A stretch of DNA of 32,000 nt from Nostoc minutum NIES-26 (GCA_003326215.1 LXQD01000205.1:65301-97300), one strand, 5' to 3'. Shown: positions 2-23,736, counted from the stretch's first letter. Numbers and translations are program-made. Notes: a model not told the origin generated them from the letters alone.

Positions 2-1465
2 GCAGGGGTAGTGGCTGTTCCGGCTTATCCACCCAAACAAAATCAAAAGCTTACCAGATTACAATCAATCATCACAGATGCCCAAGCAAAGGTAGCTCTA
101 ACTAATCAATCTCTGTTCGAGAATATTAAAGGACGCTTTGAACAAGATACAGAACTGGCAAAAATCCATTTACTTGCTACCGATAGCATTGCTGAGGAAT
201 TAGCCTCAGACTGGCGAAAACCGGAAGTTAACAGCAACACTTTAGCCTTTCTGCAATATACTTCGGGTTCTACTGGTACGCCCAAGGGAGTCATGGTCAG
301 TCATGGCAATCTGCTGCACAACTTGGAGTACATGAAGCAGGCATTTAATCTGACCCCTGACAGCGTATCTGTATCTTGGCTACCTGGTTTCCATGATATG
401 GGTCTGATCGATGGACATCTGCAACCTTTGTATACAGGGTTTAGGTGTATCCTGATGCCGCCTGCATCTTTTGTGCAGCGACCGATTCGATGGCTGCAAG
501 CAATTTCGCACTATAAAGCAACTCATTGCGGTAGTCCCAATTTCGGCTACGACCTCTGCGCCAGCAGCAATCTCACTCCAGAACAACTAGAATCTCTCGA
601 TTTAAGTCATTGGCATAATGCCTACAGTGGTGCTGAACCAGTTCGCAAAGAAACAATGGAGCGGTTTGCCGCTAAATTTCAAGCTTGTGGTTTTCACTCT
701 CACTTCTTCTACCCTTGCTATGGTTTGGCAGAGTCTACTTTGATGGTTTCAGGTGGCAACATCAAAGATGAACCGATTTACTGTCAAGTCGAGGCAGAAG
801 CACTCGAACAAAATCGGATTATCCCAGCTAATGCAGATACCAAAAATGTTAGATATTTGGTAGGGTGTGGGCACTCTTGGCTAGATGCGAAAATTGTCAT
901 TGCTAACCCAGAGACAATGACGCAATGTGCCCCTAGCGAAGTCGGAGAAATTTGGGTTTCTGGTTCCAGCGTGGCTCAAGGTTATTGGCAAAGACCAGAA
1001 GCAACAACACAAACATTTCAAGCATATCTGCAAGATGGAAGCGGCCCATTTCTCCGCACTGGTGATTTCGGATTTTTACAGGATAGTGAGTTGTTTGTCA
1101 CCGGACGCGTTAAGGACATGATTATTATCCGGGGTCGCAATCACTATCCCCAGGATATTGAATCGACGGTAGTGAAAAGTCATCCAGCTTTACGAATTGG
1201 TTTCGCGGCGGCTTTTTCTGTTGAATTAGATGGCGAAGAGCAACTCGTCGTTACTTCTGAGGTTGAGCGGACTGCCATTCGCAAACTGAATGTCGATGAA
1301 GTCGTGGCGGCTATCCGACAAGCGGTATCAGAAGAACACGAACTTCAAGTTTATGCTGTGGTGCTGTTGAAGCCTGCAAGTATTCCCAAAACTTCTAGCG
1401 GTAAAATTCAGCGTCATGCCTGTCGAACTAAGTTTCTAGAAGGAACGCTGGATGTTGTAGATATG
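2..1465 (+). other. Fatty acyl-AMP ligase (FAAL)-type adenylation domain, N-terminus missing
   Basis: AMP-binding motifs [55 protein letters not shown] and KTSSGKIQR are present. An ACP and KS follow directly, the typical FAAL loading architecture. Confidence 0.8.
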
Positions 1466-4400
1466 TGGCATTCCGCAAGTAGCCAACTTCCTAATGCAAA
1501 AGCAGAATCTTCTCGTCCTTTAAAGGCACTGAATAAACAGGCAGAAACTATTCAAGGTTGGTTGGTTGAGAAAATTTCACAGCAGCTAAAGATTGCACCT
1601 CAAACCATAGATGTTCAAGAACCTTTTGCACGCTACGGTTTGGATTCGCTGGCGGCGATGATGCTTTCCACGGAACTAGAAGATTGGTTGCGGTTGAGCC
1701 TTTCTCCGACTCTGATTTATGATTATCCTTCCATTGCCGCTTTGGCTGAACATTTAGCTGTGGTTGTTGAGAATTCCCAGCCAGAACCAGGGGAGCAGAG
1801 AATCTGGGGAGCGGGGGAGCTGGGGAGTGGGGGAGAATTCTCTAGTCTTTCTCCTAATCCTCAATCCTCAGATGCGATCGCAATTATTGGTATTGGCTGC
1901 CGTTTTCCAGGAGCAAAAGACCCGGAAGCCTTCTGGCAACTGCTGCAAAATGGTACTGATGCCATTGTAGAAGTACCGAGCGATCGCTGGGATATTCAGC
2001 AAGTTTACGATACCCAACCAGCGACACCAGGGAAGATGAACACTCGTTGGGGCGGATTCCTGGAAGATGTGGATCGATTTGATGCTGCTTTCTTTGGCAT
2101 CAGTCCCCGCGAAGCCGAAAGTATCGACCCGCAACAACGCCTAGTGCTAGAAGTCAGTTGGGAAGCGCTGGAAAATGCTGGCGTTGCCCCACAGCAATTA
2201 AAAGGCAGTCAAACTGGGGTATTTATCGGCATTAGCACCAACGATTATGCGCGGTTGCAGTTTAACCATCCTACCGGCACTGATGCTTACTTCGGTACTA
2301 GTTCGGCGTTCAGCATTACCGCTAATCGCTTATCTTACTTACTAGATTTGCGCGGGCCGAGTTGGGCAGTAGATACAGCTTGTTCTTCCTCACTAGTGGC
2401 GGTGCATCAAGCTTGCCAAAGTCTGCGTCAAGGAGAGTCGGAACTAGCTGTAGCTGGTGGAGTCAATCTCATCCTGACTCCCGAATTAACGATCGCATTT
2501 TCCCAAGCGCAAATGATGGCAGCAGATGGGCACTGCAAGACATTTGATGCTACTGCTAACGGTTACGTTCGCGGTGAAGGCTGCGGCGTTGTTATTCTGA
2601 AGCGCCTCAGTGATGCCCAGCGAGATGGAGACAATATTTTAGGAATCATTAGAGGTTCGGCTGTTAACCAAGATGGCCGCAGCAATGGATTGACAGCACC
2701 AAACGGCCCTTCCCAGCAAGCGGTTGTGCGTCAGGCTTTAGAAAAGGCGCAAGTACAACCCGCACAAATTAGCTATGTCGAAGCGCACGGTACTGGTACG
2801 CCGTTGGGAGATCCCATCGAGGTGAATTCTCTCAAAGAAGTGCTGACACAGGGAAGAACGCCGTCATGTTCTTGCTGGATTGGTTCGGTAAAAACTAATA
2901 TCGGTCATTTGGAAGCTGCATCGGGAATTGCCAGCTTGATTAAAGTGGTGCTGGCGTTACAGCATCAAGAGATTCCACCTCACTTACATTTGCAGCAGCT
3001 TAATCCTCACATCAAGTTAGAAGGCACTGGCTTGGCGATTCCCACTGAACGCCAGACATGGGCTGGAGAACGGCGATTTGCTGGTGTTAGTGCGTTTGGG
3101 TTTGGCGGGACTAATGCTCATGTGATTTTGGAAGAAAGTCAAAAAACGAACCACATAGACGCGTTAGCGGCTTCCCGCAGGGTAGGACGCAAAGTACACG
3201 GAGAAATGAGGGTTTCAGAGGGTTCTTGTGTAAGTAACGAGGAAGAATTTGAGCGTCCTAAGCATTTGCTGACTCTCTCGGCGAAGAGTGAAAAGGCGTT
3301 GAAGGAATTGGCACAGAAGTATGGGCAATTCTTAGCGGTCAATTCAGAAGTCGCTGTGGCTGATGTTTGTTTTACTAGTAACACGGGGCGATCGCATTTT
3401 GATTATCGTTTAGCAGCGATCGCTGAATCAACTGCACAGTTAAGCGAACAACTGAATGCTTTTGCCAATTCTCAACCAACTGCGGCGTTAGTTAGTCAGC
3501 CAGAAACCAACAAGCCTCGTAAAATCGCATTTCTCTTCACCGGACAAGGTTCTCAGTATCCTGGAATGGGACGGCAACTCTACGAAACTCAACCAGTTTT
3601 TCGCCGTACTCTGGAACGCTGTGATGAAATTCTCCGGGCTTATCTAGAGCAACCTCTACTGTCAGTTATTTACCCTGAGTCGAACACAAATTCAGTGTTA
3701 AATGAAACAGCATATACACAACCAGCTTTATTTGCCTTGGAATATGCTCTCTTTGAACTGTGGAAATCTTGGGGAATTGTCCCAGATATAGTTATCGGTC
3801 ACAGTGTCGGGGAATATGCTGCGGCTTGTGCTGCTGGGGTGTTCAGTTTAGAAGATGGGCTGAAGTTGATTGCCATCAGGGCAGGGTTGATGCAGGCATT
3901 GCCTCCCAATGGCATGATGGCGGCAGTATTGACTGATGAACAACGGGTGGTGGATGCGATGTCTGCGACGGGCTTTGCCAACGCTCCTTATGGTGCAACG
4001 GTATCTATTGCTACCGTGAATAGTCCGAATCAAATTGTGATTTCGGGAACCAAAGAAGCTGTGCAGGAAGTGCTGAAACAATTTGAGTCTCAGAAAATTT
4101 CTGCCAAAGCTTTGAGAGTTTCTCACGCTTTTCACTCTCCGTTGATGAACCCGATGCTAGAGTCTTTTGAAGAGATTGCCGCCTCTGTGAAGTTTAACGC
4201 GCCTAGTATTCCTTTGGTTTCCAATTTGACAGGCGAAATCCTTAGCAATCAAGACATTCCTGACGCGAATTATTGGTGTCGTCATATTCGAGAAGCGGTA
4301 AGATTTTCAGCCGGGATGGAGACGCTGCATCGTCAAGGTTATGACTTATTTCTGGAAATCGGCCCTAATTCTACGCTGTCAAATCTAGGAAAACAGTGTT

Positions 4401-7400
4401 TACCGAAAGGTGTAGGAACTTGGTTGACTTCTCTAACAAAAGAAGACAACTGGCAATCATTACTCAACAGTTTGGCAACACTATACACCCTTGGCGTAGA
4501 TGTGGATTGGTCTGGATTTGACCGAGACTTTACGCGCAGTAAGCTAGCACTCCCTACTTACCCGTTTCAGCGTCAACGTTTTTGGATTAAAACCGACGGA
4601 GGAAATAATACAAAATTGAATACTACAACAGACGAACTCGGCAAACAAAGCCAGAATTGGACATCTCAACAATACTTCTATGGCTGGCAATGGCAACCTC
4701 AGCAGCTAGTTGCAACGGGAGAGATTTCGCCTGGGGCTGTCCTCATCTTTAAGGACGCTCAAATGGTTGCCAAAAACCTTGAAAAGCTGTTTGATGCGGA
4801 AAAATACCCTGTCTACTTTGTCACTGCGGCTCAAAAGTTCCAACAAAAAACAGAACAACACTTCACTATCAATCCTGCTTCGCCGGAAGACTATGAAAAA
4901 CTCATTCAAGCTTTCAAACAGCAAGGTCTGACGATTACAGCTATCATCCACCTTTGGAATTACAATCAAGCTGCAATTTCAAGGTTGCCTGTAGATTCTC
5001 ACGATTCTGTACTGCAAGAAGGTATGTACAGCGTGTTGTATTTAGGACAAGCACTGGTCAAACATTACGCCAATTCTCCCATCAATTTACTGCTGTTAAC
5101 TCAGGGTGCTTATGTAACATCTGCAAATGAAACGCTTCAGGGTTTACACCAAGCGATGGGAGCAACCTTAGCCCAGACACTGACTCAAGAACACAATAAT
5201 ATTCAAGCAAAAGTAGTAGATATTACACCTGGGAGTGTCTCTTCAGAAACACTAGCTACAATTTTGTTCCAAGAGTTGCCAGCCAAACCTGACAAAGAAG
5301 GAATTGTAGTTATCCGCCAAGGACAACGATTTATTCGGATTTTTGAAAGAATGGAAATTCCGGCTGGTAAGGAATTTCGGCCAGTCTTAATACCCGGAGA
5401 TACTTGGTTAATTACTGGCGGTGTGAGTGATGTCGGGACAGAAATTGCTAAGGGAATGGTGAGTCGCGCACCGATTAATTTAGTACTAACTGGTCGTCAT
5501 CCCCTACCGCCAAAAGCAGAATGGCACTTGCATGATGGTGACAACAGCACTAGCAAACGCATCCGGATTATTCAAGACCTAGAGCGACTGGGAGCTACGG
5601 TACTGTACCACGCTGTAGATGCTACAGATGCCGAAGGAATGCAGCAGTTGATGGAAACTATCCGCGAGCGCTTCGGGCAATTACATGGAGTTATCCACGC
5701 TGCTGGGGTGCAGGATCAAACAAGATTCAAGCTGTTGCAAAAAACACCCGAAACAGTGGCGGAGGTACTTGCTCCGAAAGTTGAGGGAACCATTATCTTA
5801 GATAATGTCACCCAAGACGAACCTTTAAAATGTTTTGCTGTCATCTCCTCTGCTGCGGCATCAAAAGCTGAATGGGGAGCTAACTTAGGAGATTATGCAG
5901 CAGCTAATATTTTCCTGGATAACTATGCAACATACCGCGCCCAACGCGGTGCGCCAGGACATTCACTTGCGGTTAATTTCTCCTTGTGGCGCGACAAGGG
6001 AATGGCAAAAATTGGCGGACAGGCGTTAGTAATTTTAGCGAAAGTTAAAGGGTTGAAGCTTCTAGAAGTAGACCAAGCTGTAAATGCTTTTATTGAAGCT
6101 TTGTCCTTAGATGAGCCTGTAGTTCACATTGTAGATTTGCTGGAAAAAGATCGGGAGAGCAGAGGAGCAGAAAAGCAGAGGAGCAGAGGAGAGAAATTAC
6201 TGCAAGTTTCCCCTCCGCCCCCTATCCCCTCCGCCCCTCTGCCTCTTAAGATCCAACCCAAAACCCAAAATATCCGCCGCCTAGTTCTGGAAATATTAAG
6301 TAAATATCTAACGATTCCCCAAGAACAAATACAAGGATACAGGTCTTTTCAAGAGTTGGGATTAGATTCTCTAGGCGCTGTGGAAGCTATCAAACAGTTA
6401 AGTCTAACTTTCAAACACCAATTATCTCCGACACTTTTCTTCGAGTATCAAACGCCGGATGAACTAGCAGACTATTTAGAAAAACAGTATGGCGCATCTG
6501 CGATCGCACCTCCAGAAACGCCTGTAAACAAGCATGAAGAAGGCAGGAAACAGGAAGCCAGTACTCCTTCTGCCTCTCTTATCAAAAAGGAGACTCCAAC
6601 TAATTTGATGGTTCAACAATCAAACTTTAAAGCAATGGACGTTAAACAAGAAGATATTGCCATTATCGGCATGGCTTGTAAAATTCCAGGGGCTGACAAT
6701 TTAGAGCAATATTGGCAGTTTCTCACTGAAAAACGCTCCTTTATTAAAGAAGTTCCGAGCGATCGCTGGTTAATTGAGGATTACTATGAGGAGAATGGAA
6801 CAGCCCCGCATACGACCTATTGTAAGCGTGGTGGCTTTATCGAAAATCCCTTTGACTTTGACCCGATGTTCTTTGGCATTTCGCCACGGGAAGCCACGGC
6901 GATGGACCCACAACAACGGGTGTTTTTGGAAGTAGCTTGGCAAGCTTTACAACAAGCAGGTTACGGCGGCAAATACCGGACAAAAGATATCGCGGTAATC
7001 GTTGGTGGCGACCAAAATAACTATGTAGAACACTTCTTTAATTATCAGTACGGTACTGTACTCAAGCGGCGTTTGCACAAGACTTCTTGGTTTAAGCAAC
7101 TCACTCCTAGCGAACAGAAAAACTTACTCGATACGGTTTCAGATGTTCTCAAACCTAGCGAACTCCTCCCCGAAGCAACCGCTGGGAACGAGTTAAATCA
7201 AATTGCGGCGCGAGTTAGCCACTGCTTAGACCTGATGGGGCCAAGTTTAGAAGTAGGTACAGCTTGTTCCTCTTCTTTAGTGGCAATACACCTGGCTTGT
7301 GAGAGTATCCGGGCGGGCGATACTTGCATTGCGATCGCAGGTGGCGTTAACCTAAACCTCAGTCCTACTCCCTTTACTTTCCTCAGTCGCGTTCAAGCTT

Positions 7401-9259
7401 TTTCTCCCACAGGTGAATGTTTCCCATTCGATAGCCGCGCTAATGGCATGGTTGTCGGCGAAGGTACGGGCGCAGTTGTTCTTAAATCCTTACGCAAAGC
7501 CTTAGAAGATGGCGATTACATTCACGCTGTGCTTAAAGGTTCCGCCATTAACAACGACGGACATTCCCAAGGAATCACCGCCCCGAAACCTGAAGGTCAA
7601 GCTGAAGCGATTCGTAAGGCTTACAATAAGTTTGGCATCGACCCCGAAACCATCTCCTACATTGAAACTCACGGCACTGGCACAATGTTAGGCGATCCCG
7701 TAGAAGTCGAGGGCATCACCAAAGCTTTTCGTGATTTCACCGACCGTAAAGGTTTTTGCGGTATCGGTTCAGTCAAATCTTCTATCGGTCACTTAATGGC
7801 TGGTTCAGGTGTTATCAGCTTGATTAAAGTCGTACTCGCCATGCAAAACGGCAAAATTCCGCCAACAGTCGGCTTTGAAAAACCTAACCCCCATATCGAT
7901 TTTGCCAATACACCTTTATATGTAGTCGGTGGAGAAGGTAAACCTTGGACAAGTAATGGCGAATTGTTACGCGCCGGAGTCAACGGATTTGGATTTGGCG
8001 GCACAAATTGTCACCTAATTGTCGAACAATCTCCAATTTCACAATCTGCTAAATCCGCACAACAAACTTCCTCTCCTCATCTTTTGTGCTTAACTGGACG
8101 CAATCAAAAAGTTCTCAAAGAAATTGTCAAACAATTGCACGAGCATATTAGCAAACATCCAGAACAAGAATTATCAGAAATCTGCTTAACGCTCAGTAAT
8201 TCCCAACGCGAACTGTCTTATAAAGCGGCGTTAGTTGTGAATAATCGCCAACATTTGTTGGATTCCTTAAACGCCATTTTATCAGAGCAAAACCAGCCAA
8301 ACATTCAAATCAATCGTTCAAATCCCCAAAAAGCCACACCTACTTATCTAGTTTTGGATAGTAGCTGTACTTTAACACCAGAAGAAGCCAAAATATTAAG
8401 CGATCGCTATCCAGAATTCAGAAAAGCCTACGCTGATTGTGAATTCCTCTGGCGACGCACAATATCAACCTGGGATTTAAACAGTAACGCCGCCCTTTCA
8501 CAAAAAGCCCATACCTTTGCCGTACAGTATGCTTTGTGTAACTTGTTGATGTCTTTGCAACTTCAACCCACCGCTTTATTAACAGAAGGAGTCGGAATCT
8601 TAGTCGGAGCTTGTTTGACTGCGATGTTCTCTTTAAAAGAGGCATTCATCTTATTAGCGGAATTAGAAGGAAAGCAGATTAACAATTCTGTCGAAGAACC
8701 AAGATTAGAAGCTCCATTAGTAACAGTTTGGAATTCTCCCTTAGTAACCCCACTAGGAACTTACAAACCATCTGGTAAGTTCACCAAAACACAAATGCAA
8801 TCACTCGTACATGTTTCTGGTTCATTAAAAACCGAACATTGCCGAGAAACATGTAGTGAAGCCGGAGCTTATTTATATTTAGGAGAAGCAAACATCAGAC
8901 AGCAATTAAATATTGCAGACGATACACTTTGGATTCACTTCGAGAAAAATCAGCCAATCGCAAATTTCTTAACTGCGATCGCTCGATTGTACACCGCAGG
9001 AGTTCAGTTTAACAGCCTAGGTTTATTCCCCAAAGGACTGCGGAGAGTACCATTACCGACTTACCCATTCGAGCGAAAAACTTATAAAGCTCCAATTGAC
9101 TATAGCGAACCGGAACTACAACAAGCTTTAGAACTTGAAGGTTTGCTACTCATAGAACACCTAGCAGCACTATCGCCAGAACAGCGACAATCTAGCTACA
9201 AAGCTTTACTTGAAGAATTCGGATTCACTGCTAAAACGGTTGAGAATACGAATAATTAG
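2..9259 (+). CDS. Type I polyketide synthase, 5'-truncated at the window edge: FAAL-ACP-KS-AT-KR-ACP-KS-(decayed AT)-C-terminal tail
   Basis: A 3082-aa ORF stays open to the window edge, with no stop in frame upstream of nt 11. Domain motifs are listed in the sub-features below. No DH, ER, MT or TE motifs were seen. Confidence 0.95.
1538..1765 (+). other. ACP domain 1
   Basis: Motif [18 protein letters not shown], with the phosphopantetheine Ser codon tcg at 1646-1648. Confidence 0.85.
1769..1840 (+). repeat. STRR-like GGGGAGN heptamer block flanked by GAGAATTC direct repeats, in frame in the ACP1-KS1 linker
   Basis: The block gagaattc...ctggggagcgggggagctggggagtgggggagaattc encodes [17 protein letters not shown]. 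Confidence 0.7.
1871..3139 (+). other. Ketosynthase domain 1 (C-H-H intact)
   Basis: Motifs [27 protein letters not shown] (Cys codon 2381-2383), [29 protein letters not shown] and [14 protein letters not shown]. Confidence 0.95.
3155..3194 (+). repeat. Dispersed repeat family B (TAGACGCG..GGCTTCCCG.AGGGTA), in frame in the KS1-AT linker
   Basis: atagacgcgttagcggcttcccgcagggtaggacgcaaag matches the copies at 15910-15942 and 18102-18133 (reverse orientation). Confidence 0.75.
3521..4405 (+). other. Acyltransferase domain, malonyl-CoA-type signature
   Basis: Motifs [23 protein letters not shown] (Ser codon 3803-3805) and HAFH (4124-4135). HAFH is the classical malonyl-specific signature, as opposed to YASH. 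Confidence 0.9.
4688..6145 (+). other. Ketoreductase region (structural psi-KR plus catalytic KR)
   Basis: Rossmann motif [17 protein letters not shown] starts near 5399. Also present are HAAGV, APKVEGT and [21 protein letters not shown] (catalytic S/Y/N region). No HxxxGxxxxP DH motif lies between the AT and KR. Confidence 0.8.
6153..6245 (+). repeat. Inverted purine/pyrimidine heptamer arrays (GCAGAGG... / ...CCCCTCCG, CCTCTGC), in frame in the KR-ACP2 linker
   Basis: The left arm is gggagagcagaggagcagaaaagcagaggagcagaggagag and the right arm is cccctccgccccctatcccctccgcccctctgcctc. Together they encode [32 protein letters not shown]. Confidence 0.7.
6263..6490 (+). other. ACP domain 2
   Basis: Motif [18 protein letters not shown], with the Ser codon tct at 6368-6370. 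Confidence 0.85.
6650..8029 (+). other. Ketosynthase domain 2 (C-H-H intact, ~40-aa insertion upstream of the active-site Cys)
   Basis: Motifs [27 protein letters not shown] (Cys codon 7265-7267), [29 protein letters not shown] and [14 protein letters not shown]. The segment between the GxxxG strand and the Cys is about 91 aa, against about 53 aa in KS1. The extra sequence lies at about 7010-7204. Confidence 0.9.
8078..9085 (+). other. Decayed acyltransferase-like region (AT0), active-site motifs lost
   Basis: The region is collinear with the KS-AT linker and AT of module 1 and ends in the same post-AT motif ([11 protein letters not shown] vs [12 protein letters not shown]). GQGSQ is replaced by DSSCT (8357-8371), GHSxG by TEGVG (about 8582), and no HAFH/YASH motif is present. 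It is about 130 aa shorter than module 1. Confidence 0.7.
9098..9256 (+). other. C-terminal helical tail, possible docking element
   Basis: About 55 aa follow the post-AT motif ([41 protein letters not shown]) and look amphipathic and helical. The assignment rests on position only. Confidence 0.3.
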
Positions 9260-9459: not shown

Positions 9460-9714
9460 ATGAGTCTTAACAGTTTACAACTACAAATCTTCACTTTCGT
9501 TGCTAAAATCACAGGACACGATGTAGAAGACTTAGAACCAGATATGTATCTGGAAAGCGATATGGGATTAGACTCTATCAAAATGGTAGAGCTACTCAAC
9601 ACCTTTATTCAAATGGTTCCACAGGAAAAACAAGCTGAATTTTTGCAAGTTGTACCCATGGAACAACTAATGCAACTCCAAACTTTAGCAGAAGTTCTAC
9701 AACTCGGTCAAACT
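9460..9714 (+). other. N-terminal carrier protein domain (probable ACP of the split PKS module 2)
   Basis: Motif SDMGLDSIKMVELLNTF, with the Ser codon tct at 9574-9576. The domain starts at residue 1, leaving no room for an N-terminal docking domain. Confidence 0.8.
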
Positions 9715-12700
9715 TGGATTGCTCCTCAAGAATCAGTAACACCTTCTCCAGCTATTTCTGCACCTCAAACTACCATTGTTTCTTCAACTATTTCTACACT
9801 TCAAACTACCACCGTTTCTTCAACTATTTCTGTACCTCAAACCGCCACTGTTTTCTCATCTCAAATAGAAGAAACAGCGCAAGAAGTCCCAATTCTTGAT
9901 GCTCAATATATATTCTTAGCTTCTCACTGGGCTGTATCTACTTGCAGTTTATGCTCTACATTACGGTTGAACGGGCCTTTTAATGCCCAAGTTTTTCGCC
10001 AAAGCTGGCAAGAATTGCTGACTCGTCATCCCATGCTGAGAGCATACTTTTCCATCCCAGCTGGAGCAACTAGTTTTAAAGATTATCGCTTGATGGTTCT
10101 GGATAATCCTACTCCTCCAGAAATTGCCATCACTGATTTAAGAAATTGCGATCGCCAAACTCAAGATTACCGCATTAACGAAGAAGTTCATCGTTGCATC
10201 AATTCCAGATGGGATATCTCACAGTGGCCCTTGCATAGATTCTTTGTCTTTCAACTCGAAGATGCAGTTTACGAAGTCTTCTTCACCAATCATCACCTGA
10301 TTTCTGATGGTTTGAGTAACCAAATTGTGTTACGTGACTTCATGGAGATTTACGGTGCAAGGCTAAACGGAACCCAGCCTATTTTACCTGCTGCGATCGC
10401 AGTTGCAGATTATCGGGCGATCGCTAACACGCTCAACACCTGGCAAAATCAACAAGCAGAACAATCTCTGCACAAATATTTGAGCAAGCAGGGCAAAGAT
10501 AAATTTCTCTGGAACCCCCAAGGCAGCACCGTCAAATATAACTCCACCAACATCCGCACTTTATCCTACCGTCTCAGCCGCAAAGTCACAGATAGCTTAA
10601 TTAGCCGTACCCGCGACTGGCGCTTACCACTCAATTCTTTAGTAGTTGGTGCTTATTTACGAACTGCTGCTAAGTTCTGTCAGTTACCCGAATCTGTTGT
10701 ATTGAACATTCCTACTAGCGGACGCATCTATCCTGGAGTAGATATTCCTAACGAAATTGGCTGTTTTGCTCAAAATCTCGCATTGAGTTTCAAAGCCCCA
10801 ACACCTGACGAAAACTGGTCTAATCTGCTGTATGGCATTCATTCAGAAATTCATACAAATCTAGCCGCAAATCATGACAACGCTCAAACTCGCCAAATGG
10901 GGATTTGGCTGCGAGAAAAAGTCGCACTCGAAGATGGCAAAATTCCCCCTACTGCTGCTAGTTTGATGCAAATGGGAATGAAAGCAAATTTATTCCTTTC
11001 TAACATGGGGCAAACCCACATCAAACCTGAGTATGGTTCCCTGAAAATTCTCAATTACCGAGCAGCTACCGTCACCAACGCGGGTACTGTAGACACATTG
11101 GTAGAGATATTCGATAACTGCTTGCACTTAAATACCAGCTACGATAGCAACTTCTTTAGTGAATATCTCATCGATACTTTTTGCAGGCAATTGATTGCAG
11201 ACATTGAAGAATTAGCATCTCTACAAATTCAGCCCCAGCAAATTACTCAGCCACTTTCACTGTCAGCAACAGATACTCAGTTCAAGTCCATCCTGCAACA
11301 AATAGCCACAGAAGTTTGCCATGACACCATCACTGATACAGCTTTAGATAAAGATTTAGTAGTAGATTTGGGATTAGATTCGCTAGAACTAATCCGCATC
11401 ATCACCAAATTAGAAAAGCAATTAGGTAAGGTAAATCGTCAAGCTTTACTATCTTGCAGAAGCTTGCGAGAAATGGTCTATACACTCAGCCACGGAGAAA
11501 TACCTGCAACAGTTGCAGCGACTCCCCAGCTAGTAGAAATACCTTACTTGGAAATTATCGAACAAGTTAAGCGTACTCCTGATGCAGTAGCGGTTATTGA
11601 TGGCAACATCAAACTCACTTATCAACAACTGCACAATCTTTCCAATCAAGTTGCTAATTACTTGAAAACTCAGGGAGTAAAACCAGGTGTTTTAGTAGGT
11701 ATTATGCTGAATCCTGGTTATCTGATGTGGGTGGGAATATTGGGTATTCTCAAGGCGGGAGGCGCTTACGTTCCTTTAGATCCTGCTTATCCTAACGAAC
11801 GAATTCAATACATACTAGAACATGCTGAAGTTCAAACTTTATTAAGCGAACATCAGCTGAATGCAAAATTAACAGAATGTCTAACAGCACAGTTACCCCT
11901 ATCAACTTTAGTATTCTTGGATGAGGGAGAAGCTTTAACTGGGACAACTTTAACCCAAGTTAACAAGAGTTCTTGGTCTAATAGTTCCGAACTAACTCCT
12001 GCTAGCGTCAATACTCCTGACGATTTGATGACAGTATTGTACACCTCCGGTTCTACAGGTCGTCCCAAGGGAGTGATGCTCAATCATCGGGGTTACATGA
12101 ACCGCCTCAACTGGATGCAAAAAGCCTTTCAGTTGTCGCCTGGGGAGCGAGTTGCCCAAAAAACATCCTGTTGCTTTGATATTTCAGTTTGGGAAATATT
12201 CTGGCCTCTCATGGTAGGCGCTACAGCTTGTCCTGTGAAGCGGGAAGTCGTAAGAAATCCTTGGAATTTAGTGCAGTGGATGCATGACACCCAAATTAAT
12301 ATCATGCATTTCGTTCCCTCCTTATTCGGAGAGTTCGTTACTGCTTTAGAGGAAGAAGCGTGGACATTTCCTCACTTGCGTTGGTTAGTGTTTAGCGGTG
12401 AAGCCTTACCTGTTTCTTTCATTCAACGTTGGTTAGACAAGCATGGAACCAAAGTTGGGTTAGCAAATCTTTACGGCCCCACGGAAGCATCTATAGACGT
12501 TACCGCTCATATCATTCCTAGTAGTGTCCGAGATGCAACCAGTATCCCCATTGGCAAAGCAATTGACAACGTTAATATTGTTCTCCTAGATGAACAAATG
12601 CAACCTGTGAAACAGGGTGAGTTGGGAGAACTGTGGATTGGTGGCGTACAATTGGCTCTTGGTTATCTTAAAAACCCTGAAAAAACAGAGCAATCTTTCC

Positions 12701-14517
12701 GCCCCAACCCCTTCGCAGACATCAACAGCAAATATCTCTACCGTACTGGCGATTTAGCGAAGCAATTACCCGATGGCAGTTTTGAATATCACGGACGAAT
12801 TGACCATCAAGTTAAAATACGCGGTTTCCGTGTGGAACTGGGAGAAATTGAGAATGTGCTTAACAGCCACCCTGATATTCGAGAAGTTGCTGTCGTCGCC
12901 CTAGACTATGGTTCGGGACAGAAAAAGCTAGTTGCTGGTATCGTTGGACAGCAGGTAGACAGCAAACAACTCAAAGAATATGTGGGACGCTGGGTACCTG
13001 ATTACATGATTCCGCACCGGATAGAATTGCTAGACAGCCTACCTAAAAATCATAACGGCAAACTGGATCGCCAAGCGATCGCAGCTATCCTCAACGGCGA
13101 AACCCCTTGTACAGACGCGATTAATCGCGTTTCTACCGAGGAATACGTACCTTTAGGCCCCGCACAGCGCTGGGTAATGAAATACTTTGAACCTCCATAT
13201 CAATGGACTGGTTACACCCGTTTTGTTTACCGCCATCCCCTAGAAATTAATGTTTTCAACCAAGCACTGAACTTGATTGTAGAACGCTATCCCGTTTTAC
13301 GTACAATATTTGTCCAAAAAGCAGGTCAATGGCAACAAAAAATCATTCAGCCAACTGAAGAATTAAAAGCAATTCTCTATGATGGTAGCCATTTAAAAGC
13401 TGAAAAACGAGATGAAGAAATTCGTACTTTAATTCAACAAGCTGGCGAACAACTGCAATTTGACCAATGGCCGTTACTGAAGGTAATTGTTGTCAAAATC
13501 AGTGATTCATGTTACGACATGGCATTTATTGGACATCATTTAATCGGTGATTTACTAAGCAACGGTTTAGTTTTCCAAGAGTTTTGGTTTACCTATACTC
13601 AAAATTTAGGCAACCCAAGTAATATCAATCTGACCACAACTAACAAGCCTTCTTACAATGACTATGTGCGTCTATTAACGGAAAAAGAAGCACAAGGAGA
13701 TTTGGCAAAGCACATTTATTATTGGTTGTACCAATTTCCTTCAGAAAAATCTGCTTTCCAAGTTCCTTTCGATTTTGAGAAAGGAGAAAATATCGAAGCT
13801 TCTGCTGCTCAAAAAAGATTTCTCCTGCCCAAACCTCAGAGCGAAATTTTACTAACCAAAGCCAAGGAGTATTATGTTTGCAACCTTTATTATCTTTTAC
13901 TTGCTCCTTTATATCGCCTCCTTGCTGAATGGAGTGGAAGACCTGGAGTAGTATTAAGTCATCGCAGTCACGGCAGAGATTTGGGCAATAATCACAGATT
14001 CTTTGACAGTGTTGGTAATTTCGCTGTTAATTATCCTATGGGTATCACTGTTGAAGAAAAAACCAGATGGGAGCCAATCATTAAGCAAATCAAACAACAA
14101 TTTGATTGGTTACCGATGAACGGGGTTACCTTTGATTGGTTAGGCGAAAAACTACCCAGTTATATGTACCCAGATAATCGTTTAACACCTGTGAGAGCTA
14201 ATTATTTGGGCAACCGTACCATTCCTACTTCTCAGGTATTCGATTTCATTGCAGAAGATTGGGATCGCCGCTTATCTCCTCCCCAACAAAAACGTACAAC
14301 TCTGTTAGAATTCTTCTTCACTCTTGTGAATGGTTCCTTAGAATTGGAGATTGAATATTCTACTAATTTCCATCTACCAGCAACTATTAATCGGTTAGGC
14401 GAACGATATTTAGAACTAGTTAATGACATGGTGTCAGTTGTACCTGTGACATCTGCAAATAATGGTCATAATCGTCTAAATAGTCGCAAAACAAGTTTGC
14501 AAGAGTTAACAGTGTAA
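9460..14517 (+). CDS. NRPS-like megasynthase with domain order carrier-C-carrier-A-C
   Basis: A 1685-aa ORF starts at ATG 9460, preceded by ttattggagcatt (GGAG). Domain motifs are listed in the sub-features below. No carrier follows the A domain and there is no TE or R domain. Confidence 0.92.
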   Translation: MSLNSLQLQIFTFVAKITGHDVEDLEPDMYLESDMGLDSIKMVELLNTFIQMVPQEKQAEFLQVVPMEQLMQLQTLAEVLQLGQTWIAPQESVTPSPAISAPQTTIVSSTISTLQTTTVSSTISVPQTATVFSSQIEETAQEVPILDAQYIFLASHWAVSTCSLCSTLRLNGPFNAQVFRQSWQELLTRHPMLRAYFSIPAGATSFKDYRLMVLDNPTPPEIAITDLRNCDRQTQDYRINEEVHRCINSRWDISQWPLHRFFVFQLEDAVYEVFFTNHHLISDGLSNQIVLRDFMEIYGARLNGTQPILPAAIAVADYRAIANTLNTWQNQQAEQSLHKYLSKQGKDKFLWNPQGSTVKYNSTNIRTLSYRLSRKVTDSLISRTRDWRLPLNSLVVGAYLRTAAKFCQLPESVVLNIPTSGRIYPGVDIPNEIGCFAQNLALSFKAPTPDENWSNLLYGIHSEIHTNLAANHDNAQTRQMGIWLREKVALEDGKIPPTAASLMQMGMKANLFLSNMGQTHIKPEYGSLKILNYRAATVTNAGTVDTLVEIFDNCLHLNTSYDSNFFSEYLIDTFCRQLIADIEELASLQIQPQQITQPLSLSATDTQFKSILQQIATEVCHDTITDTALDKDLVVDLGLDSLELIRIITKLEKQLGKVNRQALLSCRSLREMVYTLSHGEIPATVAATPQLVEIPYLEIIEQVKRTPDAVAVIDGNIKLTYQQLHNLSNQVANYLKTQGVKPGVLVGIMLNPGYLMWVGILGILKAGGAYVPLDPAYPNERIQYILEHAEVQTLLSEHQLNAKLTECLTAQLPLSTLVFLDEGEALTGTTLTQVNKSSWSNSSELTPASVNTPDDLMTVLYTSGSTGRPKGVMLNHRGYMNRLNWMQKAFQLSPGERVAQKTSCCFDISVWEIFWPLMVGATACPVKREVVRNPWNLVQWMHDTQINIMHFVPSLFGEFVTALEEEAWTFPHLRWLVFSGEALPVSFIQRWLDKHGTKVGLANLYGPTEASIDVTAHIIPSSVRDATSIPIGKAIDNVNIVLLDEQMQPVKQGELGELWIGGVQLALGYLKNPEKTEQSFRPNPFADINSKYLYRTGDLAKQLPDGSFEYHGRIDHQVKIRGFRVELGEIENVLNSHPDIREVAVVALDYGSGQKKLVAGIVGQQVDSKQLKEYVGRWVPDYMIPHRIELLDSLPKNHNGKLDRQAIAAILNGETPCTDAINRVSTEEYVPLGPAQRWVMKYFEPPYQWTGYTRFVYRHPLEINVFNQALNLIVERYPVLRTIFVQKAGQWQQKIIQPTEELKAILYDGSHLKAEKRDEEIRTLIQQAGEQLQFDQWPLLKVIVVKISDSCYDMAFIGHHLIGDLLSNGLVFQEFWFTYTQNLGNPSNINLTTTNKPSYNDYVRLLTEKEAQGDLAKHIYYWLYQFPSEKSAFQVPFDFEKGENIEASAAQKRFLLPKPQSEILLTKAKEYYVCNLYYLLLAPLYRLLAEWSGRPGVVLSHRSHGRDLGNNHRFFDSVGNFAVNYPMGITVEEKTRWEPIIKQIKQQFDWLPMNGVTFDWLGEKLPSYMYPDNRLTPVRANYLGNRTIPTSQVFDFIAEDWDRRLSPPQQKRTTLLEFFFTLVNGSLELEIEYSTNFHLPATINRLGERYLELVNDMVSVVPVTSANNGHNRLNSRKTSLQELTV
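9752..9859 (+). repeat. 3 x 36-nt tandem repeat encoding a 12-aa Ser/Thr-rich unit in the carrier-C linker
   Basis: The units lie at 9752-9787, 9788-9823 and 9824-9859, and units 1 and 2 differ at 4 of 36 positions. The peptide is AISAPQTTIVSS / TISTLQTTTVSS / TISVPQTATVFS. Confidence 0.9.
9886..11229 (+). other. Condensation domain 1
   Basis: A C1-like motif PILDAQYIFL is present. The catalytic motif HHLISDG lies at 10291-10311. Confidence 0.85.
11272..11493 (+). other. Carrier protein domain 2 (PCP), located upstream of the A domain
   Basis: Motif DLVVDLGLDSLELIRIITKLEKQLG, with the Ser codon tcg at 11380-11382. Confidence 0.8.
11542..13095 (+). other. Adenylation domain (amino-acid-type, Asp in FDxS retained)
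   Basis: Motifs LTYQQLHNLSNQVANYL, LYTSGSTGRPKGV, CCFDISVWEIF, NLYGPTEASID, YRTGDLA, GRIDHQVKIRGFRVELGEIE and NHNGKLDR. I did not attempt a specificity code by eye. Confidence 0.92.
13108..13136 (-). repeat. Dispersed palindromic repeat family A (GTAGAGACGCGATTAATCGCGTCTGTACA), in frame at the A/C junction
   Basis: tgtacagacgcgattaatcgcgtttctac is the reverse orientation of the 28249-28277 copy with one mismatch. It encodes CTDAINRVST. Confidence 0.85.
13141..14439 (+). other. C-terminal condensation-like domain (putative release or ester/amide-forming C)
   Basis: A C1-like motif VPLGPAQRWVM comes directly after the A domain. The catalytic motif is HHLIGDL at 13534-13554 (HHxxxD kept, Gly replaced by Leu). 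Confidence 0.75.
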
Positions 14518-14897: not shown

Positions 14898-15851
14898 ATG
14901 CGTAATTACTTTTCCACTTTTGTTGTATCAACGACTGTTGCAGTCTCGGCTGCTTTACCAGTTCAAGCTGCGACTTTTGACTTCAGTAAATTACAATTGA
15001 TTTCCACACGACCAATTGAATCTAATTCCGAATTATCTTTTTTTGGTGATGTGAATGCTAACGAAGGTCAAACAGCATTCATTAATCCCGATCCCAATGC
15101 TCCAGACAACGGTCATGCAGAAATTAGTCCCAATTCAGGAAGCTTTGCACCTTACTATGCAACTGGTCGGAATGCCAGTCCTGAAAATAGTGGTGCTACT
15201 AGAGCAGCCAGTTTAAAAGGGGTGACAAATTTCCCTAACTTTTTCAATTATCTGACTAAAAATTCAATCGCTCTCAATAGTATTGGTTTTAGTTACGGGC
15301 AAAAAAGCGATCGCGATTTTCGAGAAACTTGGAATTTAGGAGAAGATAAACTCGGTCAAGATTGGCTAGCTAGTTCTACTTCAACAATTGAAGAGAGAAT
15401 TTATCGAGCTAATCCCGATGTTGTAGAAACCTATTTCTCTTTAGGTAATACTAGAATACTCAATTTAGGATATACCCCTTTATACGCTACTTTTGAGTAT
15501 GGAGAGACACCAGCTAGGGAAGATAATATTGACTTATTCTATTCAGAACCAGTCAAAGTTACAAAAGTAGGTGGATTAAATTCATTAGAAGCAGGTCTAG
15601 CAGATGCATTTTTACAAGACGTTGCCAATAACGGAGGTAGCATTCAGTTAGTTGGAGAAGATGTCGCAGCTCAAGATGGTTCTTTTACCTCTGGCAATGG
15701 CTTCAGTATTTTTAACTTCTCATTACCGTTAACTGTACGTGCAGTCTCCGTTCCCGAACCTTCTGCAATTTTAGGATTTTTGATGCTTGCCGGTTCAGGT
15801 ATATTCTCTTTCTCAAAACAACAGAAAAAAGCACCAAAAACCTTGAATTAA
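14898..15851 (+). CDS. Secreted PEP-CTERM sorting-domain protein
   Basis: The N-terminal signal peptide is MRNYFSTFVVSTTVAVSAALPVQA/ATF. The C-terminus VPEPSAILGFLMLAGSGIFSFSKQQKK shows PEP, a TM helix and a basic tail. Confidence 0.75.
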   Translation: MRNYFSTFVVSTTVAVSAALPVQAATFDFSKLQLISTRPIESNSELSFFGDVNANEGQTAFINPDPNAPDNGHAEISPNSGSFAPYYATGRNASPENSGATRAASLKGVTNFPNFFNYLTKNSIALNSIGFSYGQKSDRDFRETWNLGEDKLGQDWLASSTSTIEERIYRANPDVVETYFSLGNTRILNLGYTPLYATFEYGETPAREDNIDLFYSEPVKVTKVGGLNSLEAGLADAFLQDVANNGGSIQLVGEDVAAQDGSFTSGNGFSIFNFSLPLTVRAVSVPEPSAILGFLMLAGSGIFSFSKQQKKAPKTLN

Positions 15852-15895: not shown

Positions 15896-15950
15896 TAATT
15901 ACGAATTACGTAGACGCGCTCTGCATGGCTTCCCGAAGGGTATTACGAAT
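15896..15950. repeat. Family B repeat inserted in ATTACGA heptamers
   Basis: The sequence is taattacgaattacGTAGACGCGCTCTGCATGGCTTCCCGAAGGGTAttacgaatt. It supplies the spurious ATG at 15925. Confidence 0.75.
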
Positions 15951-15963
15951 TGGAGAAAGAGAG

Positions 15964-17046
15964 ATGGCTATTTTTGGAAAAATGGGTATGTATTTTCATA
16001 CCCTGGTTACAGCTACGACGATCGCAATTGGAGCAATGGTAGCACCACCATCCACAGCAGCAACTTTCAAAGTGACTGTGGAAAATGTAGCTCCAGAAAG
16101 TGGGATTAACTTAGCTCATTTTTGGATAGGCTTTCATGATGGTAGTTTTGATGCTTTCAATGCAGGTGAACCTGCTTCAGGAGCAATCAAACTCATGGCT
16201 GAGGAACAAGTAATCGGTCTTGGTGCTAGAATTCTGGATGATTTCAATATTCCCACTCCACAACTTACTGATATAGTCATTTCCACCTTTGCAGCGGGTA
16301 CTGACTATGCTTTCATCTCCCCAGAACTTCAGTCTGCGTTAGAAGCAGGTAGCGATCGCGCCACCATATCTGCAATCCTGGATTCGATTTTTAATTCCGA
16401 CATCGACGTGAAGGATTTACCTCCCTCACCAGGAACCATTGCCGCTGAGTTCGCTAACAGTCAAGCCGGAAAAAATGGTGGCACACAAGATATCTTGTTC
16501 TATCCCACCCTATCGCCAATTCCCATAGTCCAGCCTCCTGGTACAACTGCTTCCAGACTTATTGAACTGGACGATCCTCAAAAAAATCGTTTCTTCAGTT
16601 ACGCTACAATGCTTTTTCCTAGTAACGATGCCTTCATTGGGAATGACAATCCAAAAGCGATTCAAGTTTTTGACGAACAAGGAAACTTCATAGGAGCAGA
16701 TTTCACAGTTTTTGGGAATCAAGCATGGGATGCAGGTACTGAAGTCAACGACGAGAAAATCTTTTCTATGCCTGCAAACATAGATGAAAACGGCACAATT
16801 CAACCCCATCCTGGTTTAAAAGCGCCTGGTGAAGGAGGAATTGTAGATACTCAATTGGATGGGTTAAGCTTTGCCAACGCTGATTTTTCCAAGCCAGGTT
16901 ATCAAATAGCACACATCACAATTACCAAGGTAGACGAACCAAGCACTAATCATGGTTTACTTGTTCTCGGCGGCTTGTTGTCGATAGTTACAATAATGAG
17001 CAAATTAAAGCAAGGAAGAAACAATTTTTCGTCAAGATTTAACTGA
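15964..17046 (+). CDS. Secreted spondin_N-like protein with a variant PEP-CTERM anchor
   Basis: The ORF is open from 15925, but its first 13 codons are repeat-derived. ATG 15964 follows ggagaaagagag. After the signal-like segment comes ATFKVTVENVAPESGINLAHFWIGFHDGSFDAFNAGEPAS, resembling cyanobacterial spondin_N-type proteins as I recall them. The C-terminus VDEPSTNHGLLVLGGLLSIVTIMSKLKQGR matches the PEP-CTERM layout. Confidence 0.6.
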   Translation: MAIFGKMGMYFHTLVTATTIAIGAMVAPPSTAATFKVTVENVAPESGINLAHFWIGFHDGSFDAFNAGEPASGAIKLMAEEQVIGLGARILDDFNIPTPQLTDIVISTFAAGTDYAFISPELQSALEAGSDRATISAILDSIFNSDIDVKDLPPSPGTIAAEFANSQAGKNGGTQDILFYPTLSPIPIVQPPGTTASRLIELDDPQKNRFFSYATMLFPSNDAFIGNDNPKAIQVFDEQGNFIGADFTVFGNQAWDAGTEVNDEKIFSMPANIDENGTIQPHPGLKAPGEGGIVDTQLDGLSFANADFSKPGYQIAHITITKVDEPSTNHGLLVLGGLLSIVTIMSKLKQGRNNFSSRFN

Positions 17047-17554: not shown

Positions 17555-17995
17555 ATGTCTACATCAATTCCAACACCAATTATGCCCGTATCCACTCAAC
17601 TAGGAACACCTGAAATTATGTCTTTAGCAACTCCAACAGCAATTATACCTGTACCGACTCAAATAGAAACTCCTGAAATTCAAAAAGGTTTTAATCTTTT
17701 AGGATTAAAAGTCTCAGATATTGAATTGAACGAGCTGAAACATGGCAATACCGTTTCATTAGAAAGCAGACGACTAAGTGAAATAGGTTCAGTATTGATA
17801 CTTGCAGAAGCTCTTTCATCATTGCATTCAGTTAAAAACATTACCTTCAAAGATTTACCAAAAGTTGTTACAGAATCCACAAATTGTTCTGGCATTCCCG
17901 TCCATCGATGGAATGATGATATACTTGGTAAGTGTTACCTGCTGCTCACTTTAGTAGATGGTCAACCTGCATTCAAGATATCATCTCAAAAGTAG
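17555..17995 (+). CDS. Hypothetical protein with an N-terminal tandem 21-aa Pro/Thr-rich duplication
   Basis: A 146-aa ORF with an ATG start. No recognisable family motifs and no signal peptide. It contains two 63-nt repeats at 17558-17683. Confidence 0.45.
   Translation: MSTSIPTPIMPVSTQLGTPEIMSLATPTAIIPVPTQIETPEIQKGFNLLGLKVSDIELNELKHGNTVSLESRRLSEIGSVLILAEALSSLHSVKNITFKDLPKVVTESTNCSGIPVHRWNDDILGKCYLLLTLVDGQPAFKISSQK
17558..17683 (+). repeat. 2 x 63-nt tandem duplication inside the hypothetical CDS
   Basis: 17558-17620 encodes STSIPTPIMPVSTQLGTPEIM and 17621-17683 encodes SLATPTAIIPVPTQIETPEIQ. Confidence 0.85.
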
Positions 17996-18246: not shown

Positions 18247-18849
18247 GTGACCACATCAAAAGCTTATAAAGATTCGTCATTTTCACATGACGACCTGTTT
18301 CTATCGAAACAAATTATTATCAATCCTGTGACAGGCGATCGCATGACTATTCTTTGCTCCACCGCCGATAGTAATGGAGAATATTTTAAAGTTCAATTTG
18401 ACCTACCACCAGGAGCAAAAGGCAGTCCCTTGCATTACCACGGTTCTATGCATGAAACCTTTGAGGTTTTAAGAGGTTCGCTCAATATGGAACTTTGTGA
18501 AAAAGGCAACAGAAAAACATTGCGAACTGGAGATAAAGTATACGTTTACCCTGGTATGTATCATAGTTTCTGGAATGAATCTAATGACTGGGTAACATTC
18601 ATTAGTGAAATACGTCCTGCTGGGAATTTTGAGCAATTTTTAAAAGCTTGGTACGGTTTAGCTGGAGACAGAAAAGTAAACAAAGATGGAGTACCTACCA
18701 ATTTATTGCAACTAGCCTTAATTGTTCAGAAATCCGACACCATAGTTGTCGGACAACCGCCGTTTCTGCAAAAAATAATACTCAACATACTGACTAAAAT
18801 TGCTCGTATTTTAAAAGTAGAGCGAACCCTAGTCAAATATTGGCGGTAA
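18247..18849 (+). CDS. Cupin-fold protein
   Basis: Cupin motifs GSPLHYHGSMHETFEVLRG and YPGMYHSFWN are present. The GTG start is preceded by aggtgaaagga, and the start position is uncertain. Confidence 0.6.
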   Translation: MTTSKAYKDSSFSHDDLFLSKQIIINPVTGDRMTILCSTADSNGEYFKVQFDLPPGAKGSPLHYHGSMHETFEVLRGSLNMELCEKGNRKTLRTGDKVYVYPGMYHSFWNESNDWVTFISEIRPAGNFEQFLKAWYGLAGDRKVNKDGVPTNLLQLALIVQKSDTIVVGQPPFLQKIILNILTKIARILKVERTLVKYWR

Positions 18850-20735: not shown

Positions 20736-20792
20736 ATGACAGATTAGTTCAAAATGGTACATTACATCAGACTAATCACCAGCTTAAACATC

Positions 20793-22221: not shown

Positions 22222-22467
22222 ATGACTAGACAAGAAATCTTTAGCAAAGTTCAAGCTGTTGTCGCCGAAGAACTAGCCAATGAACAACAAAAAGTTACCC
22301 CAGATGCTAATCTAACTTTAGATTTAGGAGCAGATTACTTAGATTTAATCGCAATGTTTCAAGCATTAGAAGATGCTTTTGGTACAAAAATTCCTCCTAA
22401 GGAAGCAAAGCAACTTTTAACAGTACAAGAAGTTGTAAATTACATAGGTCAGACAGTTATTTTTTGA
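22222..22467 (+). CDS. Acyl carrier protein-like protein with Tyr in place of the phosphopantetheinyl Ser
   Basis: The 81-aa protein is collinear with E. coli AcpP. DLGADYLDLIAMFQALEDAF aligns with [20 protein letters not shown], and the codon is tac at 22336-22338. Confidence 0.8.
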   Translation: MTRQEIFSKVQAVVAEELANEQQKVTPDANLTLDLGADYLDLIAMFQALEDAFGTKIPPKEAKQLLTVQEVVNYIGQTVIF

Positions 22468-22476
22468 GTTTTAACC

Positions 22477-23733: not shown

Positions 23734-23736
23734 TAA

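Follow-up and report, generated by a model that had tools for sequence, protein, structure and literature searches.

The locus considered here raises the question of how a nonribosomal peptide synthetase (NRPS) loads its last carrier and lets its chain go when the usual order of domains is not kept. In NRPSs a carrier (T) domain normally follows the adenylation (A) domain, an epimerization (E) domain normally follows a carrier, and release normally needs a thioesterase (TE), reductase (R) or condensation (C) domain. All three rules are broken together in one gene of Nostoc minutum NIES-26, located at positions 9460-14517 on the + strand of a 32,000-nucleotide stretch (GCA_003326215.1 LXQD01000205.1:65301-97300; the whole stretch is called the window below), and the same arrangement is conserved across distant bacteria. 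The open reading frame (ORF) encodes 1685 amino acids, and its product exactly matches RCJ32490.1, annotated in GenBank as 'non-ribosomal peptide synthetase'. Our preferred answer, to which we assign a probability of about one half, is that an orphan lipid assembly line, primed with a fatty acid, ends in this ORF as its final module, where the chain would be handed over from a polyketide synthase (PKS) to an NRPS, and that its terminal domain, denoted C2 or E*, off-loads an N-acyl-seryl thioester. Put more broadly, the last domain is of an altered epimerase type and probably serves to process or release a fatty chain capped with serine, and this last step may be new chemistry.

Pfam, applied both to the whole protein and to excised pieces, yields the order T1-C1-T2-A-C2 (Table 1). 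The E-values range from 1e-8 to 1e-88, and therefore the domain calls are not due to chance; the PF00668 scores are 103.8 bits for C1 and 152.6 bits for C2. The AMP-binding_C domain and C2 are separated by 26 residues, and 27 residues follow C2, so that a carrier domain of about 70 amino acids fits neither gap. In the AlphaFold2 model of T2-A-C2 (pLDDT 87), residues 1216-1225 form a short disordered linker with pLDDT below 50. No cryptic carrier was found after the A domain, either by Pfam on the excised segments or as a helical bundle in the modelled linker, and the carrier nearest to E* lies about 550 residues upstream. Neither a thioesterase nor a reductase domain was detected by Pfam in the ORF. 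Compared with the canonical C-A-T(-TE) module, the order is thus C1-T2-A-E*, with the carrier before the A domain and with no TE or R domain. An earlier note, made from the sequence alone, had claimed the order carrier-C-carrier-A-C, an A domain running into a C-like domain with no carrier between them (residues about 1212-1230 being the place to look for one), and the absence of a TE in cis; all of this is borne out, and each of its motif coordinates is right to within a codon or two.

The non-canonical arrangement is not an isolated oddity but the property of a family spread over several phyla. In a search of 5.8 billion proteins, about 100 proteins cover nearly all of the query with the same Pfam content; they come from many cyanobacteria, Paenibacillus, Bacillus cytotoxicus, Halalkalibacter, Clostridia, Methylocaldum, Desulfobacterales and Anaeromyxobacter. 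About 93 full-length homologues from cyanobacteria, Bacillota, Gammaproteobacteria and Myxococcota keep the order, and BLAST domain mapping divides the 93 aligned members into a short form, T-C-T-A-C2, with 24 members including the ORF of the window, and a long form, T(-T)-C-T-A-C2-SDR, with 69. The extra domain of the long form is a classical, FabG-like short-chain dehydrogenase/reductase (SDR; adh_short, 212 bits), whose closest solved relatives are (3R)-hydroxyacyl-CoA dehydrogenase and FabG enzymes. A scan with the C2 profile, one genome per species, yielded 46 loci: 29 cyanobacterial (including Microcystis and Crocosphaera), 12 from Bacillota, four from Gammaproteobacteria and one from Myxococcota.

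In some genomes the gene is split or fused at domain borders. A Microcystis locus (L028) encodes KS-AT-T-C-T (KS, ketosynthase; AT, acyltransferase) followed by a 974-residue A-C2 protein, another locus (L025) encodes T-C-T-A followed by a stand-alone C2, and further stand-alone C2 proteins and C2-SDR didomain proteins occur; in one fused form (P0033) the order is AT-T-C-T-A-C2. Since the split forms and the full-length homologues keep the order T-C-T-A-C2, this order is ancient and selected. The ORF of the window can be read, on its sequence, as two pieces put together, an A-less C-T module and an A-C2 unit, which are separate proteins in some genomes, and this would account for the position of T2 on the N-terminal side of the A domain. 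It also agrees with the suggestion of the earlier note that the A domain loads the upstream carrier, as split homologues end with C-T and the next protein is A-C2. In a Richelia metagenome-assembled genome (L023 6447-11323) the NRPS is broken into overlapping ORFs within C1, probably by a frameshift or an assembly error and not by a true split. We found no published description of a family or cluster type with this architecture, which does not by itself prove that none exists; as far as sequence comparison goes, the module type is conserved and uncharacterised and its clusters are orphan.

The E* domain was assigned by profile and by fold, and both place it in the E branch and not among the ordinary C domains. 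Its profile aligns over the full length with the E domains of PvdL (E2), TycB3, TycA and GrsA in the PDB at 115-176 bits, whereas ordinary C domains score at most 75 bits; the top match, 9rde (185 bits), is an E-COM-C construct and hence not purely an E domain. A single-sequence PDB search likewise puts epimerization domains first. As the Foldseek results for the whole T2-A-E* model were dominated by the A domain and uninformative on E*, the latter was modelled alone (pLDDT 90.3, pTM 0.88). Matches 1-9 of this model are all E domains (TM 0.78-0.85), while over solved C and E domains as a whole the TM values are 0.7-0.85, with the two-lobed fold of the chloramphenicol acetyltransferase (CAT) type; the enacyloxin domain 6cgo ranks 29 and HtmB2-CT is also below the E domains. 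The E-specific model TIGR01720 matches E* weakly, at 29.6 bits, below its cut-off. Thus the earlier note was right that the terminal domain is C-like and retains HHxxxD, although a generic second C domain it is not.

What sets E* apart from the E domains is its active site. In the alignment with PvdL E2 and TycB3 E, SHRSHGRD stands where these have EGHGRE, so that Arg1502 occupies the place of the catalytic Glu (E882 in TycA). Residues H1359, H1360, D1364, S1500, R1502 and R1506 are invariant in the 93 sequences and residue 1501 is His in 92 of them, the family-wide motif being SHRxHGR; in 42 sequences the NYLG motif shows no variation at N1581 and Y1582, and the arginines R1579, R1586, R1604 and R1612 are invariant as well. 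In TycA the His and the Glu act as a base/acid pair, and E882A loses 99.5% of the product (PMC8905534). Because the catalytic Glu is invariantly Arg, E* cannot be a standard two-base epimerase; nor is it situated directly behind a carrier, as an E domain would be. The conservation suggests a constrained, E-derived domain that is presumably catalytic. When E* was searched by phmmer against 1.84 billion representatives, giant NRPSs with summed scores crowded the list, and the sole yield is that about 30 clusters (50% identity) share at least 30% identity with E*.

The C1 profile best matches ordinary C domains (PvdL C3 at 108 bits, McyB), E domains reaching only 38-56 bits, and there is a weak match to PapA5; H279 and D283 are invariant in the 93 sequences. 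Hence C1 is, by its profile, an ordinary condensation domain. In T2 the attachment residue S641 is invariant, and in the AlphaFold2 model the domain is a helical bundle of the carrier type with Ser641 opening helix II. T2 matches the AcpM and acyl carrier protein (ACP) models, and in sequence both carriers resemble ACPs rather than typical peptidyl carriers. The specificity code of the A domain is DIWHVSLIDK, with eight of ten positions identical to the serine code DVWHLSLIDK and with both Asp235 and Lys517 present. It was read by hand in the motif register of GrsA (FDxS, the PP(T/S) strand, the G(S/E)A strand, NxYGPTE and the A10 Lys), using what we take to be the GrsA position numbering. Among 53 homologues (alignment A2) the residues of the code vary little or not at all, and the PDB A domains of highest identity (36-37%) are the serine modules of teixobactin, Txo1 and Txo2. 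The specificity check proposed in the earlier note thus points to serine, and the A domain is predicted to activate serine across the family.

The upstream gene encodes the PKS that would supply the donor chain. Its N-terminus is cut by the window edge, and the rest is read by Pfam as (FAAL)-ACP-KS1-AT-KR-ACP-KS2-degenerate AT (FAAL, fatty acyl-AMP ligase; KR, ketoreductase). KS2 retains Cys2419, His2555 and His2594 (nt 7256-7792), that is, the Cys-His-His triad, and a non-elongating KS0 as in enacyloxin was rejected on these grounds. Between the N-terminus and the active-site Cys, KS2, which together with its tail lies in window 6650-9256, has about 35 residues more than KS1. The 343-residue tail after KS2 (nt 8228-9256) has no Pfam AT match and reads EGVGIL at nt 8585, where an AT would have GHSxG; judged by its sequence, the tail is a dead AT. 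In homologues such as L028 the AT is intact. With the AT of KS2 degenerate, T1 would here have to be malonylated or loaded in trans.

T1 matches the PfaA tandem-ACP region (34.9 bits), and its D38 and S39 are invariant in the 93-sequence alignment save for one gapped row. Since it is fused to AT or KS-AT in P0033, P0101 and L028, T1 belongs to the KS-AT module. These fusions and the PfaA match argue well for T1 being an ACP of the polyunsaturated-fatty-acid-synthase type, the acceptor carrier for the KS2 module and at the same time the donor for C1. Long-form relatives usually carry two T1 copies.

ORFs were clustered from 52 sequences, namely the window and 51 loci, a few of which represent the same genomic place. 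The only near-universal set consists of the PKS, the NRPS and an exporter, and this argues for an off-loading step built into the megasynthase in most lineages. A type II thioesterase (TEII) gene is present in 11 of the 52 sequences. No thioesterase was found within 10 kb in the Paenibacillus, Bacillus, Clostridium, Luteimonas and Cellvibrio loci; in Methylocaldum (L004) AXE1- and esterase-type hydrolase genes lie about 4 kb downstream.

Taken together, the data suggest the following scheme, with the carriers assigned from colinearity and from the split and fused variants. The FAAL-primed PKS would extend a fatty acyl starter twice, the second extension taking place on T1 and giving a 3-oxo-5-hydroxyacyl thioester. 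The A domain would activate L-serine and load T2, and C1 would form the amide, yielding N-acyl-seryl-S-T2. Finally, E* would act on the T2-bound thioester and take the chain off the enzyme, by cyclising release, hydrolysis or transfer to an anionic acceptor. The sequence comparisons argue well for the extension from KS2 to T1, the joining by C1, the loading of T2 by the A domain and the identity of the amino acid as serine, and more tentatively suggest that T2 is freed of its N-acyl-seryl thioester by E*. That the terminal domain releases the chain is the best guess because most loci have no thioesterase; E* is the last domain in the short forms, and in the long forms the SDR follows it. Condensation-family domains releasing a chain have precedents in enacyloxin (title of PDB 6cgo) and crocacin (PMC10549243). 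Stand-alone E* and E*-SDR proteins are what one would expect of a domain that acts in trans on a substrate held by a carrier; in the split gene of L028 the A and E* domains stay together. In the long forms the SDR would most simply reduce the 3-oxo group, a ketoreduction missing from the KS2 module. However, the SDR stays fused to E* in the split genes and therefore may act on the T2-bound intermediate instead.

As for the chemistry, an E-type pocket with the His and the Asn-Tyr retained and with Arg in place of Glu seems, by its residues, suited to forming and stabilising a carbanion or enolate with no re-protonation from the other face. This would fit a Dieckmann reaction or an aldol-lactonisation of the 3-oxoacyl-seryl thioester, or beta-elimination of the seryl hydroxyl. 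The chain might just as well be hydrolysed or passed to an anionic acceptor. The bolder version of the scheme, with a neofunctionalised E-type domain (Glu to Arg, SHRxHGR) as the carbanion-forming release catalyst of a phylum-spanning lipid pathway that would dispense with both thioesterase and ordinary C domain, we consider doubtful. In that version E* would act on an N-(3-oxoacyl)-seryl thioester whose carrier lies upstream of its own A domain, and the candidate products are a tetramate, a gamma-lactam/beta-lactone and, by way of dehydroalanine, a primary amide.

Several points weigh against this scheme. The family is orphan, with no member of known product. E domains tailor and do not release, and as most of their active site is retained in E*, its action may be limited to deprotonating C-alpha, with epimerisation or elimination as the result. 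The TEII of the window and of ten other cyanobacterial loci could release the chain there, TEII being absent within 10 kb from the other sequences compared. A further KS-AT-ACP gene comes after A-E* in the Microcystis-type loci, so T2 may not be the end point of the chain in all clades. Instead of the 3-oxoacyl chain, the SDR could have the seryl 3-hydroxyl as its target; besides FabG, its closest solved relatives include (3R)-hydroxyacyl-CoA dehydrogenase. Finally, serine is a predicted specificity, positions 236 and 299 of the code being Ile and Val against the canonical Val and Leu.

The alternative that survives best, although we still regard it as unlikely, is that E* is purely a tailoring domain, abstracting the C-alpha proton of the T2-bound (N-acyl)seryl thioester to give D-Ser or dehydroalanine, and that the chain is released by the TEII in cyanobacteria, by an unrecognised hydrolase in other lineages, or by spontaneous chemistry. 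This is consistent with the grouping of E* with epimerization domains by profile and fold, with the retention of the His, the Asp and the Asn-Tyr motif, and with the TEII genes adjoining the NRPS in 11 loci. Against it, to our knowledge stand-alone E domains are not known, whereas stand-alone transferase-type C domains are. Moreover, a true E domain is followed by a C domain of the DCL type, and E* is not; the lack of a thioesterase within 10 kb in the five genera listed above also speaks against it, although the Methylocaldum locus does have its hydrolase genes. The Glu needed for two-base epimerisation is invariantly Arg, a position whose mutation in TycA (E882A) costs 99.5% of the product, though given the His/Glu pair of that enzyme (PMC8905534) a site with His only could still deprotonate.

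A different kind of release, rather improbable in our estimate, is the transfer of the chain by E* to a small anionic nucleophile made by neighbouring genes, e.g., a shikimate-pathway intermediate, by analogy with the enacyloxin release onto dihydroxycyclohexane carboxylic acid (DHCCA; PDB 6cgo); the earlier note had suggested off-loading onto a small-molecule nucleophile made elsewhere in the locus. Synthases of 3-deoxy-D-arabino-heptulosonate 7-phosphate (DAHP) are encoded a few genes downstream of short-form NRPSs, four of the AroG type in the clade of the window and six of type I-beta at an equivalent place (L005 18349-19434 in Nostoc LEGE 12447, plus five other loci). The ten sequences with either type are all cyanobacterial short forms, and the occurrence of two synthase classes at equivalent places hints at a link to the shikimate pathway that is independent of the furanolide genes described below. 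The invariant arginines of E* would suit an anionic co-substrate, and stand-alone E* proteins exist. However, 42 of the 52 sequences, every long-form locus among them, have no DAHP synthase, no dedicated shikimate-modifying genes are conserved with the NRPS, and 6cgo is only at rank 29 among the structural neighbours. The synthase of the window may, besides, serve the adjacent furanolide genes, as does macA, the DAHP synthase of the maculalactone cluster (PMC13288894).

Much less probable still is a non-catalytic E*, serving as a scaffold or docking domain like the X domain of glycopeptide synthetases or the inactive C domain of VibF, with the A domain loading a carrier other than T2. In VibF an A domain directly precedes a C-type domain with no carrier between them, and in the window a gene for a free-standing ACP is available. 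The loci of Bacillota and Proteobacteria do not share this ACP, however, the phosphopantetheine-attachment serine of T2 is intact and invariant, and a scaffold would not be expected to keep HHxxxD and SHRxHGR with little or no variation in about 93 sequences of several phyla. An artefact (mis-assembly, a frameshifted pseudogene or an annotation error), for which nothing speaks beyond the one Richelia locus with overlapping ORFs, may be dismissed, as the 1685 codons are uninterrupted, an identical protein is in GenBank, and the order recurs in 93 aligned homologues and 46 species-representative genomes.

The features of the window are listed in Table 1; its 14 large ORFs are all on the + strand.

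Table 1. Features of the NRPS gene and its neighbours in the window; fractions give occurrence among the 52 sequences.
Feature	Position	Strand	Remarks
Upstream PKS ORF	11..9259	+	Pfam; N-terminus cut by window edge
T1	9475..9723	+	PP-binding, residues ~12-48; GLDSIK; Ser39 codon 9574-9576
T1-C1 linker	9744..9853	+	36-nt unit, 3.1 tandem copies; Thr/Ser-rich, TTxVSSTIS
C1	9880..11220	+	Condensation, residues 141-587; HHLISDG 10291-10311
T2	11293..11478	+	PP-binding, residues 612-673; GLDSLE; Ser641 codon 11380-11382
A domain	11560..13062	+	AMP-binding 701-1070, AMP-binding_C 1129-1201
A-to-E* linker	13063..13140	+	26 residues, no carrier; Pfam envelopes end at 1201 and start at 1228
E* (C2)	13141..14433	+	Condensation, residues 1228-1658; HHLIGDL 13534-13554; SHRSHGR 13957-13977
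E* motif Asn1581-Tyr1582	14200-14205	+	
PEP-CTERM secreted protein	14898-15851	+	no Pfam domain
Second PEP-CTERM secreted protein	15925-17046	+	spondin-like domain
146-aa ORF	17555-17995	+	no Pfam/NCBIfam match; conserved in 10/52
Cupin	18247-18849	+	
DUF4386 membrane protein	18931-19680	+	14/52
Type II thioesterase (TEII)	19909-20664	+	11/52, cyanobacteria only
AroG-type DAHP synthase	20754-21893	+	4/52, clade of the window
ACP, FabF-like, FabH-like	22222-24860	+	free-standing ACP 22222-22467
Aromatic ammonia-lyase, CoA ligase, ThDP (thiamine diphosphate) enzyme, KASIII-like enzyme	24974-31472	+	

The MFS transporter gene is the most frequent neighbour, usually right behind the NRPS gene (29 of 52). 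The gene of the first PEP-CTERM protein lies close to that of the NRPS, as a rule directly behind it, in 18 of 52 sequences, in cyanobacteria only, and the 96 homologue clusters of the protein are likewise all cyanobacterial; the two PEP-CTERM proteins may be extracellular partners of the product. Less frequent neighbours are an Acg-family flavin mononucleotide (FMN) oxidoreductase (8/52), an NmrA-like reductase (8/52), a FabF-like KS (7/52) and a DevBCA-like exporter (4/52), and genes of phosphopantetheinyl transferases also occur near NRPS genes of the family. FabF-like and FabH-like genes recur by the long-form NRPS in Spirirestis and Heteroscytonema (L013, L017), together with the DevBCA-like exporter; such genes may provide the acid used as starter. 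The cluster of Bacillus cytotoxicus and that of Methylocaldum (L002 5235-9601; L004 1-685 and 17716-18873) include an MMPL transporter accompanied by the Acg-family (Rv3131-like) oxidoreductase, which in B. cytotoxicus has a twin-arginine translocation (TAT) signal; this setting looks like lipid export of the mycobacterial style. In the Microcystis-type locus (L028 11923-18470) KS-AT-ACP, a PfaA-like fragment and a KR-DH (dehydratase) protein are encoded behind A-E*, and the chain in such loci may be built or extended differently.

The enzymes encoded at the right end of the window are predicted to belong to the classes found in the CybB/C/E/F core of the furanolide clusters (PMC13288894). This match to the core of the cyanobacterin, nostoclide and maculalactone pathways suggests that a furanolide pathway abuts or joins the PKS-NRPS. 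The arrangement would be like that of nvl and ncl, which abut each other in pks1 of N. punctiforme. The PKS-NRPS itself was considered as the nostovalerolactone/nostoclide pks1 cluster and rejected, as that cluster has no NRPS and only the downstream furanolide genes are similar.

The family, that is, a PKS with T-C-T-A-E*, with or without the SDR, and an MFS exporter, extends from Nostoc, Microcystis and Crocosphaera to Paenibacillus, Bacillus cytotoxicus, Clostridium and methanotrophs. It is a natural test case for how a carrier finds its partners when its tether has been moved, and for what becomes of an E-type active site once the Glu base is replaced by Arg. One solved member would give dozens of orphan clusters a product class and might reveal a new release reaction; carbanion-forming release by E*, if true, would be a new off-loading chemistry for assembly lines.

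Among known systems, the nearest ones have defining features that this ORF does not share: it has no carrier before E*, no catalytic Glu, and its carrier precedes the A domain. The E domains (TycA, TycB3, GrsA, PvdL E2) are the best profile and fold matches of E*, which keeps the His and Asp of HHxxxD, the HGR of EGHGRE, VGxF..YP and the Asn-Tyr of (F)NYLG. Unlike them, E* lacks a preceding carrier and a following DCL-type C domain, has the invariant Arg for Glu behind an invariant Ser and a near-invariant His, and can be stand-alone or fused to an SDR. With the releasing domains of the C family (enacyloxin Bamb_5915, the terminal C of crocacin CroK, fungal CT, the terminal C of RapP/FkbP) E* shares the C-terminal position with no TE in cis, a conserved His motif and the role of the sole universally present candidate for off-loading. 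These domains, however, directly follow a carrier or are free-standing, and are of the C and not the E type; 6cgo and HtmB2-CT rank structurally below the E domains, and release by E* is a proposed activity.

The position of the A domain recalls the non-linear NRPSs of type C, such as VibF (Cy-Cy-A-C-T-C) and HMWP2, and A-less C-T modules such as module 9 of SyrE. In none of these does the A domain directly precede the carrier that it serves; in VibF it runs straight into a condensation-type domain, and A-less C-T modules are served by an A domain that is, as in some of our homologues, a separate protein. In contrast to these systems, one polypeptide here holds both the carrier and, further towards its C-terminus, the A domain, and T-C-T-A-E* is fixed across phyla. 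Finally, in hybrid PKS-NRPS termination modules (ACP-C-A-T-TE/R, in lipopeptide and tetramate synthesis) the C domain likewise condenses an ACP-bound 3-oxoacyl or polyketide donor with one carrier-held amino acid. The present module differs from these in having the carrier and the A domain swapped, with an E-type domain, alone or with a FabG-like SDR, at the end in place of TE or R.

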